Shown here: piece after piece, positions 19,159 to 28,576 of the stretch
Layout of the letters: every line of letters begins with the position of its first letter
How positions within the stretch are numbered: the first letter of the stretch is position 1
Assembly (NCBI GenBank): GCA_963801605.1
Contig: CAWDFP010000006.1
Coordinates: 384,001-448,000 of the forward strand
Reading direction: 5' to 3'
Length of the DNA: 64,000 nucleotides
From: an uncultured candidate division Zixibacteria bacterium
Lineage (GTDB): Bacteria > Zixibacteria > MSB-5A5 > UBA10806
Program-made: the position numbers and the translations under genes
The notes under the pieces: generated by a model
The model's database searches: none
What the model was told of the DNA's origin: nothing
The model's input: the letters and a program-made list of their open reading frames with translations, nothing else

Positions 19159-19939
19159 TTAGTCCAGCGTTAGGTTTTCTTTGAGATTTCGAAGTACATA
19201 CGCCCAGGCTTTATCGAAATAGTCATAGAGGCTGTCCCACTCGGGGCCGATTCCCCAACCGAGTTGAGAAAGCGTCACGCGGACTTCGCGCTCATTTATT
19301 TCTGCAAATTGAATGATAACAATCGTGCGCTTATCTCGAAGTTCGCCGAATTCGGCGGGGCATTCCATTCGAAAGAAAGCATAGTCATGGGAAGGAAACT
19401 CAGAATACGGCAATCCTCGCTGCCCTGCTCGCCGTAAGGGCGGTCCATCAGAAATAGCACCTCGAATTTGCCGCCCAGCTTCGAAGTTCGATATTGGCAT
19501 GATCGGAAAAGAAGGATTTGATACCGTCGGTTGTGGTCCAGGCGTTCCAGACATCGAATAGTGCGGCGGTTACAACGGTTTCGGTACGGAGGATGCGATC
19601 TGACGGCTCTTTGACATAGCGCTCCGGATCGGGGATTTCGGCGATGAACGACGCGCGCATGGGCTGGAGTTCATAAGTCATCAGGCCGGACGTGACGGAG
19701 GGATCATTATTCATAATCTCTTCGGCATCCTCTTTTTTCTCGACGTTGAGAATGGCCAGCCCGAATACGGGATCGAAACATGGCCCCGCGACGAGGACCT
19801 TTTTCTGACGAACCAGCCTTTTCAGATACTCGGCATGTTCCGACATGAGCTTTTCCTCATCTGGAGTCATATCGTACGGCCACGTAGGCCGCGGGCCGAT
19901 TAGGCGGGCGAGGAAGTGGGGGAGGGACGGGGTGGGCAT
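19159..19939 (-). CDS. YciI-like plus SRPBCC (START-like) fusion protein with apparent indels
   Basis: YciI: MSEHAEYL..LVAGP..DPSVTSG; SRPBCC: VWNAWTT.DG..FF, then GGKFEV..SFEWNAP..YFDKAWAYVL.NL spread over adjacent frames. Confidence 0.7.
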
Positions 19940-20612
19940 GGGTGTCTCCTTGTGTTGATGTTCCATACAAACAGCCATAATTTATATTTGGTTCTTTTGA
20001 AATGCTATACTATAATAAATTTAGATATGAAAGATGATATTTTGACTTATAGAGAACTTTGCGATAAAGAAAATGTTCAAACAATTCAGCGAGGTATGAA
20101 TTTTCGTATAAATAATAAATATTCAGTAATTTTAATGTCTCAAAGGGGAAACGCCCCGTATAAGGACAGGATTCTTGATGATGGATTTACGGTTGAATAT
20201 GAAGGACATGATACTCCAAAGACGGAATTAACTCCTGAACCTAAAACAATTGATCAACCCGAAAAGACGAAATCCGGTACCCTTACACAAAATGGGTTGT
20301 TTATCAAAGCCGCTCGGGAGCATAAATTAACAGGGAAATTTGAACTCGTTAGAATTTACGAAAAGATATTTAGCGGCGTATGGTCAGATAAAGGATTCTT
20401 TAAGTTGATTGACTATAAAATTATTAATGATGGAAAAAGAAACTTATATAGATTTTTGCTTGTAAGTATAAATCCAGAGGAAATTCCCAATTCAAATGAA
20501 CAAATATCTAAATACAATAGATCCAGAATAATACCCACCGAAATAAAAAAGGAAGTATGGGACAGGGATAAGGGCCGATGTGTAATATGTGGCGCAAAAG
20601 ACGAATTGCATT

Positions 20613-21183
20613 TTGATCACGACCTCCATATGCAAAACCGCCTATAATAAGTATATCAGCTAATAGTTCCCAATCAACGCCAACCTGCCCAATTAAAATT
20701 GGGGATGATGGCTGTGAAATATCAACTACTTGAAAGTAGCTGTGTAACCAATTTGTGCCGGTATAATAACTTGTAAGATAAGCGTAGTTGCCGCTTACAG
20801 TAACTCCTATGCACTTATGCGAATCTATTCTAGGAAAATTGCTTTCAAAATGCGGATTTGAAGAATCAGAAATATCAATTATTCTCAGCCCATAATCACC
20901 ATTAGCAAAATAAGCATAATTCCCCTGTATACAAAGAGATTTATTGCCGTATCCAAATCCATAAGAATTGGGTATCGGCAATAATGAAAGGCGGGAAGGA
21001 TTCAACGGATCGCTTAAGTTAAGAATTTGTAATCCTGAATCTGGGTCAATTGTATAAGCAAGATGACCAGAAATAATAATTTGCCTTACTCGCGTATCAT
21101 AGTGTCCCACTATGGCAGGATTCAGGGGAAGCCATTATGAGATAGAGCAAGAACTATTGGGGATTCAATTGATCACGACCTCC
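20613..21183 (+). repeat. 15-bp direct repeat TTGATCACGACCTCC (20613-20627 and 21169-21183) bounding the insert
   Basis: Identical 15-mers read directly from the sequence. Confidence 0.9.
20628..21139 (-). pseudogene. Internal fragment of an LVIVD-repeat (beta-propeller) gene
   Basis: About three repeats: GHLAY..GLQILNLSDPLNP, GNYAY..GLRIIDISDSSNP, GNYAY..QVVDISQPSSP; no signal peptide or own terminus. Confidence 0.75.
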
Positions 21184-21273
21184 CATACTCAAAAGGTGGA
21201 ACAAGTATATCTCCCGCCAATGTGCGAATACTATGCGCACGGCATAATTTGCAAAAATCCGATAAAATAGAAT

Positions 21274-21301
21274 AAAAACCGGGGTCCGCAGGGGACCCCG
21301 G
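21274..21301 (-). terminator. glnA intrinsic terminator
   Basis: CCGGGGTCC/GGACCCCGG stem with a T run on the minus strand. Confidence 0.75.
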
Positions 21302-21312
21302 CTACAAATCTG

Positions 21313-21362
21313 CAAGCCTCTTCGAGGCTTGATGTCAGGTACCCTGAGGCGTCTTGACCTAC
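21313..21362 (-). repeat. REP-like GTAG-hairpin element
   Basis: Minus strand GTAG-GTCAAG..CCTGAC, followed by the CAAGCCTC-GAA-GAGGCTTG hairpin. Confidence 0.45.
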
Positions 21363-21373
21363 GAAAAACAAAT

Positions 21374-22816
21374 CTACGCATCATAATACAGTCGGAATTC
21401 CCAGGGGTGGGGGCGGACACGGATTTGATCGAGCTCGTTTTCCTTGATCGCCAGCCAGGTGTCAATCAATGCCTGCGGGAAGACATTATCCTTTTGCAAA
21501 AATGCGTAATCGGCCTTGAGGGCTTCGAGGGTCAGGGCCAGCGATTCCGGCAACAGCGGACGCTCATCGGCGTCGCTCCCGACAATCTTGGAAACATCCT
21601 GATTGTACGGTTCGCCGGGATCGATCTTGTTTTCGATACCATCGAGGCCGGCCATAAGCATGGCGGCAAAAGCGAAATAGATATTGGCGGTCCCGTCCGG
21701 CGGACGGAACTCCATGCGCATCACCGACGGGTCTTTGATATATCCGGGGATACGCACCGCGGCAGTGCGGTTGCCCACCGAATAGCTGATCCGCACCGGG
21801 GCCTCGAAACCGGGCACCAGGCGCTTGAAGGAGTTGGTCGACGGGTTGGTAAAGCCCAATAAAGCAGGCGCGTGTTTGAGCAGACCGCCGAGGTAATACC
21901 GTCCGATCTCGGAGAGGTTCAGCGGCTTGTTAGCATCGTAGAATATTGATTTGCCGTCGCGCGCCAGGAATTGATGCACGTGCAATCCCGAACCCGGCTC
22001 CATAAAGAGCGGCTTGGGCATGAAGCTGGCCGATTTGCCATACTGCCGGGCGCCATTCTTTATGAGATACTTGGCAAGCTGCGATTTGTCGGCCATAGCA
22101 AGCATCGGGCCGAGCGAGGTCTCGATCTCCTGCTGCGAAGCGCCGCCTACCTCATGGTGATGGTATTTGACATCGAGGCCGGCCTCTTTGAAGAGCTTGC
22201 AGATATAAGCGCGAATCTCGTAGGTTTTATCAAGCGGCGGAGCAGCGTGGTACCCCTCTTTATAACGGATATGATGGCCAAGATTCGACTCGTCGGTGTT
22301 GCCGGAACTCCACTCGGCCTCCTCGGAATTCAGGAAATAGAAACCGTGGCTGGGAGTTTGATCGTAGCGCACCTCGTCGAATAGATAGAATTCGAACTCC
22401 GGCCCCATGATGATATCGGTGCCGGGCAGAAGTTTCTGGAGACGTTTCATCGCCTTGGCGGCGGTGAAGCGCGGATCGCGGGGATGCGGCTCGGTGGGAT
22501 TAACCTCATTGATATTACCGATGACCGAAAGTACCGGCATCTCCCAAAAGGGATCGACGAAGCTAAAGGATGGATCGGGAAGAAGAATCATATCGCCGGC
22601 CTTGACCGAGAGGAAGCCGAGCGAGGAGCCGTCTAAGCCAATGCCATCTGTAAATGTTTTCTCGGTAAATCTTTCAGCGGGAAGAGTAATATGTCTCCAG
22701 GCGCCTTTGATATCGGTAAACTTGATATCGACAAACTCGAAGCCACCGTCTTTTACCTTTTTAAGCAACGCATCGATCATCGAAACACCATCCTTCATAA
22801 TTTCACCGTGCCCCAT
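21374..22816 (-). CDS. glnA: Glutamine synthetase type I
   Basis: DGSS, GPEFEFY, HHHEVG..Q.EI, FMPKP..GSGLHVH, NRTAAVRIP, EFRPPD. True start probably slightly downstream of 22816. Confidence 0.95.
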   Translation of the reverse strand: MGHGEIMKDGVSMIDALLKKVKDGGFEFVDIKFTDIKGAWRHITLPAERFTEKTFTDGIGLDGSSLGFLSVKAGDMILLPDPSFSFVDPFWEMPVLSVIGNINEVNPTEPHPRDPRFTAAKAMKRLQKLLPGTDIIMGPEFEFYLFDEVRYDQTPSHGFYFLNSEEAEWSSGNTDESNLGHHIRYKEGYHAAPPLDKTYEIRAYICKLFKEAGLDVKYHHHEVGGASQQEIETSLGPMLAMADKSQLAKYLIKNGARQYGKSASFMPKPLFMEPGSGLHVHQFLARDGKSIFYDANKPLNLSEIGRYYLGGLLKHAPALLGFTNPSTNSFKRLVPGFEAPVRISYSVGNRTAAVRIPGYIKDPSVMRMEFRPPDGTANIYFAFAAMLMAGLDGIENKIDPGEPYNQDVSKIVGSDADERPLLPESLALTLEALKADYAFLQKDNVFPQALIDTWLAIKENELDQIRVRPHPWEFRLYYDA

Positions 22817-26995: not shown

Positions 26996-27040
26996 TGATA
27001 ATGTTGACGAGCTTCTTAAATGTCACGCTTGGAGGTTTTT

Positions 27041-28508
27041 ATGGCACTGCGAAACTATCAGGAATATATCGAATCGCTCAAGAAGATGCGGCCGAATATT
27101 TATAAATTCGACCAACTCATCGAGGACGTAACCACTCATCCGGCCACCCGCTACACAGTCGAGGGACACAGCAAATCGTTTCGCCTCTATGACGATCCCA
27201 AAGAGCGCGATACGCTGGTGACAACCTCGCACCTCACCGGCGAGCCGATCAGCCGTTATCTCTCAATCGTGCGAAGCCCTGAGGATATGTACGCCAATAG
27301 CCGGATGAAACGTCGCCTCTTCCAGCTTACCGGCACCTGCACCGGCGGACGATGTGTCGGCTGGACCGCCATCAATGCGTTATTTGTTACAACATTCGAT
27401 ATGGATCAGAAGCTTGGCACCAATTATCATCAGCGTCTACTCGCCTGGCTGCGCGATGCTCAGGCGCGCGATATAACAATCTCCGGAGCGCTGACCGATC
27501 CCAAAGGAGATCGCACCAAGACACCGTCGATGCAGGACGATCCCGATATGTCGCTTCGTATTGTCGAGCGACGGCCCGATGGTATCGTAGTTCGCGGGGC
27601 CAAGGTGATGATTTGCGGCGTAGCGGCCTCGAATGAAATTTTCATTCTCCCCGGCAGCGGTTATAAGGAGCCCGATAAGGATTACGCGGTTTCATTTGTA
27701 ATTCCGCGCGATATCGAAGGTTTGACTATCGTTGAAGCTCGTCATCCCAGCGATATGCGCGAGTGGGAAGAAGGTTTCGATTCGCCGAATAAAGAGGGCG
27801 GAATTACCCAGGCATATCTGCTTTTTGAGGATGTTTTCGTGCCTAACGAACGGGTTTTCATGGCGGGCGAATTTCAGTTTGCGCTTGCGACAGTGCTCAA
27901 TTTTATCGCGCCATATCGAGCGGCAATCGGCGGTTGTGTGGCCGGTCAGGGCGATGTCAAGATCGGAGCAGCGGTGCTGACGGCGCGGGCCAACGGCTTG
28001 CAATCGAAAGTATTCAATGACAAGATTACGCAGATGCATATCAATAACGAAACCACCTATGCAGTGGGGATTGCGTCAGCGGCGCTGGGCAAGAAGCACC
28101 CATCGGGCGCCTGGATGTGCGATATGCTGCTGTCCAATGTCAACAAAGTACACGTGGCCACGTTGCCGTACGATACCAATCGTCTGGCGCAGGATATCGC
28201 CGGCGGTATCGCCGAGACCGGATGTATGCCATCGTATAAGGATTTCAATTCCAAAAAGTACGGCGATCTGCTTCAGAAATATATGAAAGCCAAATCGCCG
28301 GCCGAGGCTCGTGCCCGTGCCGCGCGTTTGGTGGAATGGGCGACTATCGGAGCGGGCGTGCCGGGCTGTATGCATGGCGGCGGCTCTCCCGATGGCGCCA
28401 AGTTGGTTATTCGCGGCAACGAGAATCTCGAGGAGAAAGGTCGAGTTCGCTCGCAAGTTAGCCGGTATCAGCGAGCCGATTCCGGAGCCGGAGGGAAAGA
28501 AGCCTTAG
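27041..28508 (+). CDS. 4-hydroxybutyryl-CoA dehydratase / HpaB family flavoprotein (one apparent indel near 28440)
   Basis: TGTCTGGRC, ALTDPKGDR, DGIVVRGAK, LLFEDVFVP.ERVF, MHGGGSP; natural end EEKVEFARKLAGI..KKP* lies in the next frame. Confidence 0.85.
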
Positions 28509-28538
28509 GGGTAGACCGCAATACTATTCCAAAAGTTT

Positions 28539-28576
28539 GCGTCAGGGCGGAGCATATTAATGCTCCATCCTGACGC
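28539..28576. repeat. GTCAGG...CCTGAC palindromic element
   Basis: GCGTCAGG..GGAGCAT-ATTA-ATGCTCC..CCTGACGC. Confidence 0.55.

Follow-up and report, generated by a model that had tools for sequence, protein, structure and literature searches.

How did a gene for a predicted type IV nuclease come to be split at its active-site motif by foreign DNA standing between two copies of a short direct repeat? The locus lies in a stretch of 64,000 nucleotides (the window) from the genome of an uncultured Zixibacteria bacterium (assembly GCA_963801605.1, contig CAWDFP010000006.1). The first-pass annotation offered three answers: a reversible excision switch for a toxic nuclease, a one-off capture of host repeat-gene DNA, and a chimeric assembly. 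The one-off capture is the best fit of the three: a dispensable defence gene probably became a pseudogene through illegitimate insertion, as a single recent event at a staggered break. The features of the locus are listed in Table 1.

Table 1. Features of the interrupted nuclease gene and its neighbours, in window positions
Feature	Coordinates	Strand	Description
YciI-domain gene	19159..19936	-	Divergent neighbour; frameshifted here; one 257-aa ORF in sister locus L029
Nuclease 5' part (gene start 20027)	20027..20627	+	SRA-like domain, linker, first CxxC and H-F-D-H-D-L strand; codons 1-200
Left 15-bp copy	20613..20627	+	Phe196 base 2 to Pro201 base 1; nuclease-gene sequence
Insert	20628..21168	.	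541 bp, 37.7% GC, single genomic copy, without terminal inverted repeats
LVIVD open frame	20628..21128	-	167 codons, about four LVIVD (beta-propeller) repeats; reaches the edge of the left repeat
Out-of-frame tail	21129..21168	-	40 bp outside the LVIVD frame; TAA at 21132-21134
Right 15-bp copy	21169..21183	+	
Nuclease 3' part	21184..21275	+	Asn213, CxxH (218-221), Asn222 and stop codon; severed from the 5' part
GC-rich palindrome	21274..21310	.	GTAG end, T-run on the minus strand; REP-like and terminator-like; outside the insert
Glutamine synthetase	21374..22816	-	Convergent neighbour; syntenic in the sister genome G001

The interrupted gene is a pseudogene of the SRA-HNH family, and its HNH motif is split. 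Removal of one repeat copy and the 541 bp leaves 693 nt, or 230 codons and a stop, which bears out the statement that one recombination between the copies restores an in-frame gene. The intact homologues P0001-P0003 have this same length and are 85-91% identical, and a tblastn search with P0001 recovers the gene in two pieces with an excess of exactly 556 nt. The nuclease family yielded 2773 homologues. The HNH domain (PF01844) is found in 112 of the 113 that were aligned, and the Pfam domain SAD_SRA is detected in just five. Residues C185, C188, H195, D197, H198 and N222 are invariant in the homologue alignment. Invariant Y45, D47 and Y58 are plausible candidates for residues of a modified-base pocket, by analogy with TagI.

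The fold of the N-terminal part was taken from an AlphaFold model of a close homologue, P0002 (mean pLDDT 83). In a Foldseek comparison with the PDB, the best match of this model is TagI (PDB 6GHS, E 1.2e-7), followed by the SRA domains of SUVH5/6 and UHRF1; TagI was not among the matches of sequence searches against the PDB. Two features that define an SRA-HNH enzyme are thus seen in the family, an N-terminal SRA fold in the model and, in the aligned homologues, a C-terminal HNH domain with zinc ligands and catalytic His and Asn. The original identification of the gene is upheld for the HNH half by Pfam and for the SRA half by the homologue's predicted fold, while Pfam does not detect SRA in the window protein itself. 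PADLOC gave nothing beyond weak HNH matches. As modelled, the intact family is an uncharacterized, Pfam-poor branch of the SRA-HNH enzymes with predicted type IV activity. Its likeness to TagI lies in the predicted N-terminal SRA fold and in the C-terminal HNH domain with its zinc site; the two differ in sequence (18% identity) and length (285 residues in TagI, 230 here), and the copy in the window's genome is broken. ScoA3IV/Sco5333, to which PMC4333417 also refers, is described in the cited part of PMC6765204 as an SRA-HNH type IV restriction endonuclease. The truncated product would be 206 amino acids long, keeping the SRA domain and losing Asn213, Cys218, His221 and Asn222. By comparison with TagI, as treated in the portion of PMC6212794 drawn on here, such a product should be incapable of cutting.

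The repeat is a duplication of nuclease sequence. The 15-mer TTGATCACGACCTCC was correctly reported at both junctions, where its copies are spaced 556 bp apart, and the duplication falls inside the invariant L-H-F-D-H strand. Nowhere else in the 3.06-Mb genome does the 15-mer occur, whether 0 or 1 mismatch is allowed. A 15-bp repeat is not in itself rare in this genome, where 1226 exact repeat pairs of at least 13 bp stand 100-6000 bp from each other and 89 of these pairs measure exactly 15 bp. The repeat has weight as evidence solely through its position at both edges of the insertion, these being defined by uninterrupted alleles. Five of 40 other repeat-bounded candidates were inspected, and these candidates were rejected as paralogue ends, intergenic repeats or chance pairs.

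The insert consists of a fragment of another gene. Its description as an antisense LVIVD segment is right for all but the last 40 bp or so (PF08309, E 7e-21), which fall outside that frame, and the LVIVD frame is an internal piece of a larger surface-type protein. In a shifted frame the tail scores +1.6 bits against the paralogue profile, a value equalled by 1 of 200 shuffles; this is a weak hint that the tail resembles the preceding repeat minus about 20 nt, as after a deletion. Similarity to paralogues of about 700 residues runs without a spacer up to the left repeat and ends at the abutting Tyr, past which most paralogues go on with V/I-A-D-like residues, and therefore the repeat is nuclease-gene sequence. 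The antisense read-through into the left repeat ('GGRDQ') is incidental and no homology. The insert has no transposase or recombinase, as was stated at the outset, and codes for LVIVD repeats only. Its ends match at 8-9 of 33 positions, so that there are no terminal inverted repeats, and no inverted arms flank the 15-bp core. An insertion sequence, MITE or casposon is recognized by terminal inverted repeats or dedicated ends and by further copies or a cognate enzyme, and none of these was found for the insert in this 87%-complete genome.

The 5' part of the nuclease gene has a GC content of 34%, compared with 47% for the genome. The insert has a GC3 of 26.8% (overall GC in Table 1), and the 108 LVIVD segments of the genome have a mean GC of 46.6% and GC3 of 44.2%, with minima of 35.3% and 28.1%, so the insert is at the AT-rich edge of the host range. 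Its first bases are like the displaced gene sequence in 8 of 11 columns; 12 of 481 control positions in one set and 34 of 1521 in another do as well (p ~0.02, uncorrected for the comparison of two ends). At the right junction no microhomology was seen.

A donor gene was sought widely. In the window's own genome blastn and tblastx found none, and the best host paralogue is 44% identical. All 24 genomes of the order have an expanded LVIVD family, and no donor was found among them. Identity is at most 42% among longer proteins (120 listed of 151), at most 37% at four loci in metagenome contigs, and at most 46% among the best 150 of 32,134 representative matches, where ranking by repeat number could hide a close single relative. 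When 37 LVIVD clusters were mapped in search of a donor scar, and five partial and three deletion candidates were inspected, no fitting gap appeared. The phrase 'host repeat-gene DNA' is apt to the extent that the family is expanded in the host lineage; the donor itself is not in the assembly, and the proposed genome search returned neither it nor further copies of the 15-mer at up to one mismatch.

Uninterrupted alleles suggest that the insertion is recent. Eight public sequencing runs (X1 to X8) were aligned at 85 and 80% likeness; they are not the assembly's own reads, and the best of them shares 0.26 of the window's words. Contigs that join position 20612 to 21169, and so represent the empty site, are present in four of the eight runs and three of the four studies, with shorter sides of 42 (X1), 140 (X2), 55 (X3) and 33 (X8) bases. 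The joining contig of X2 has 5 differences in 506 bases. That of X8 has none in 151 bases, which dates the insert later than any substitution in that stretch. X5, X6 and X7 cover just parts of the 5' half of the gene. The filled junction, on either side, is in no contig or read of the eight runs. Coverage of the insert is limited to 33 bp, which X1 and X2 have between foreign flanks, and non-coverage alone proves nothing. No RNA run carrying the window was among the runs listed.

The distribution of the gene among relatives suggests that it is dispensable. The nuclease gene is patchy, with matches in 39 of 285 genomes of the class, and none of the other 38 matching genomes has an insertion at the motif. 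In two other groups of 401 genomes each, 27 and 10 genomes have a match, and no break at the motif was found among these. The motif is also uninterrupted in 33 of 33 GTDB loci, which include the centre genomes of those two groups. In the sister genome G001 the gene has the neighbours seen here, is free of the insert and is interrupted by TAA at codon 100. This codon of the sister orthologue (L029:1937-2629 = G001:C153) encodes Lys in the cluster representative P0001, which points to independent loss of the same gene via a separate nonsense codon. The genome G002 lacks the nuclease after glutamine synthetase, and in G198, G288 and G224 the gene has stops or a frameshift. Loss of the nuclease was probably neutral or mildly favoured. 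At the end of contig G199:C27 (L231) a homologue breaks just past the first CxxC into unrelated sequence, which may be an insertion sequence end.

The surroundings of the gene contain repeats of their own. The palindrome at 21274 has 17 genomic copies at up to 11 mismatches, and a second GTAG-ended, REP-like palindrome at 21333-21364 also lies between the nuclease and glutamine synthetase genes. The first was considered as the end of a cassette and rejected, since it is a dispersed repeat and occurs in the sister locus too. The genome (G000) has one Y1 transposase, at G000:C6:524629. A 20-bp direct repeat with copies 170 bp apart surrounds a GTAG palindrome at G000:C6:1424742-1424931, beside a broken tyrosine recombinase gene. 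On the other side of the nuclease, G001 and contigs of X3 and X4 depart from the window at 19928-20024 and match it only from 20025 onward. The promoter region of the nuclease seems to turn over more quickly than the gene itself.

Three observations carry the case for a single illegitimate insertion: the duplication is nuclease sequence, near-identical uninterrupted alleles exist, and the insert has no ends of its own. The event may have begun with two nicks 15 nt apart, or with a fork that stalled, changed template and restarted 15 nt upstream. A stray AT-rich fragment could then have been joined in illegitimately, with a short imperfect match assisting at the left end, and fill-in would have doubled the 15 nt. 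The donor may lie in the unassembled portion of the genome or in another cell. The nuclease would be left as a dead pseudogene, which slippage between the repeats could revive at a low background rate; nothing suggests that such restoration is programmed. Some results weigh against this account. A joining enzyme cannot be named: searches of this 87%-complete genome gave no Ku (PF02735), reverse transcriptase (PF00078) or Cas1, and for lack of PF00078 and PF02735 matches both retro-insertion and Ku end-joining were rejected. No donor exceeds 46% protein identity among the matches listed, the filled junctions are unseen in public data, the assembly is rich in indels, and the right junction is without microhomology. 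The fork version has a parallel in SPDIR, which in the part of bioRxiv 10.1101/2023.11.22.568220 used here likewise builds in heterologous DNA at the fork through imperfect microhomology and with no dedicated element. The 541-bp insert exceeds the 3 to about 100 bp of SPDIR microindels, its duplication is clean, and at most one of its ends has microhomology.

An assembly or library artefact is unlikely, though it deserves serious weight. In such a case a noisy long-read contig would have taken up a piece of another molecule, or part of one aberrant read, with 15 bp doubled where the pieces meet. The assembly has 14 contigs, and its quality lends the idea some force. Of 50 well-conserved genes 16 change frame relative to G001, one of them being 97-100% identical and shifted twice. 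There are 203 frameshift events in about 285,000 aligned residues, or about one per 4.2 kb, a count that includes real pseudogenes and from which three same-frame splits, likely N-gaps of G001, were excluded. This density points to a noisy long-read consensus. Long-read metagenome contigs may carry single-read variants, false duplications and non-existent sequence, according to the section of bioRxiv 10.1101/2025.04.22.649783 consulted. Further, the window contig is alone in showing the filled form, against four runs with contigs that join the empty one. The bin lacks the donor, and there are two possible error marks: the left join is one C short of perfect register, and the frame is broken near the right end.

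Against an artefact, a chimera would need two non-homologous junctions on one molecule, the second returning 15 nt back, and such a product would hardly be expected from ligation in a complex library. Frame changes affect 9 of 78 genes in the 200-kb bin with the locus, which is no noisier than elsewhere; contig C9 is the worst, with 18 of 30 genes. No LVIVD gene in the assembly showed a matching gap. The 501-nt frame is free of frameshifts, as would be expected of a multi-read consensus at about one frameshift per 4.2 kb and less of a single raw read. No second case was found when 986 ORFs from 1.9 Mb of G001 and G002 were compared with the genome: no other in-gene insertion of more than 60 bp was detected, and the positive control was recovered. 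This survey reached at most about one third of coding DNA, included spurious ORFs and required 15-residue flanks at 45% identity. The chimeric assembly first suggested thus keeps a foothold in the indel-rich assembly and loses ground to the double junction. The frameshift caution also concerns the window at 19159-19936 and 27020-28573, where split genes need careful reading.

It is quite improbable that the HNH motif is the preferred target of an unrecognized integrase or integrative element that leaves a 15-bp duplication, with the 541 bp as cargo or remnant. The duplication has the length of the 15-bp target-site duplication of the A. boonei casposase, in the account given by part of PMC5137440, and this length is all that the locus shares with casposon (Cas1-solo) integration, a process that depends on a casposase and on terminal inverted repeats. 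The insert has no terminal repeats or element-like ends, and Cas1 was found in none of 14 genomes of the family, the window's genome included. The other point in favour comes from contigs G148:C63 (L229) and G194:C164 (L230), each of which breaks off 17 nt past the start of the His195 codon. These two genomes of the class are unrelated, and their ends are at one identical base of the motif, with 2 nt of the window's duplication still to come. Pure chance leaves this shared end without an explanation, and we regard it as a hint. No continuation of the gene was identified: a pattern search turned up two sites with one mismatch in G148 and, in G194, none beyond the known one, and a search with the C-terminal piece in G148, G194, G199 and G116 missed even the known match in G116, so that it says nothing either way. 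The ends precede the third codon position of a conserved motif, where branches in the assembly graph between strains or paralogues would be expected. The 27 and 10 matching genomes of the two other groups have no break here, and neither the nuclease gene nor the insert was found in viral contigs. The stronger proposal, that the His-Phe-Asp-His coding sequence is a landing site at which an integrase pastes arbitrary gene fragments with a 15-bp duplication, silencing the gene in a way that one deletion reverses, and that the G148 and G194 ends are further hits, is marginally more doubtful again.

The reversible excision switch proposed at first is very hard to sustain. It supposes that a self-toxic type IV nuclease is kept off until a host recombinase removes the segment. 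Excision restores the exact frame, the genome has four tyrosine-recombinase (PF00589) matches, and SRA-HNH enzymes are toxic to Dcm+ cells in the cited passages of PMC6212794 and PMC6765204; but the core has no flanking inverted arms, the tyrosine recombinases are all far from the locus, no resolvase (PF00239) was found in the 87%-complete genome, the insert codes for LVIVD repeats only, no filled form recurs in the 33 loci or in matching genomes of the class and the two other groups, and a switch should be conserved, yet near-identical alleles are intact and a point change has inactivated the copy in the sister genome. In addition, no C5-cytosine methyltransferase, whose presence would render the nuclease self-toxic, was found in G000 (87% complete) or G001 (69% complete), which removes the motive for a switch. 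G000, G001 and G004 have the nuclease gene and no C5 methyltransferase match, and G002, without the nuclease, has two such enzymes (G002:C146 and G002:C51; L202 and L203), so mutual exclusion is possible, with four genomes only. A literature search at the level of titles and abstracts found no case of a restriction gene switched by excision, which is not proof of absence.

If a single illegitimate insertion is the right explanation, the locus matters little, as one more decaying defence gene. It is also a neat natural instance in which a gene fragment went in without any element and with 15 bp duplicated, and the bacterial mechanism of such events is unsettled. If the motif were an integration hotspot, it would represent a new route to silence restriction enzymes and would imply an unknown integrase.

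Known systems resemble the locus in part. The skin element in sigK and the nifD and fdxN elements are stretches of DNA inside genes, bounded by direct repeats, whose removal restores the reading frame. They are kilobases long, encode their own recombinase and are conserved among strains; the window's insert is much shorter, has no recombinase and is not conserved. Insertion with long target duplication was reportedly treated in earlier work by Nobusato in 2000. Furuta, Abe and Kobayashi (2010) suspected double-strand breakage as the origin of such insertions, in the part of their paper considered here (PMC2853133). The locus shares with these insertions the foreign DNA, the direct duplication of the target and the lack of a mobility gene, and relatives with an empty target and a single copy of the repeat exist here as well. 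It differs in scale and in the role of the restriction gene: in the cited part of PMC2853133 the duplications exceed 30 bp and whole restriction-modification genes are the cargo, whereas at this locus 15 bp are duplicated and a restriction gene has received a non-functional piece of another gene.
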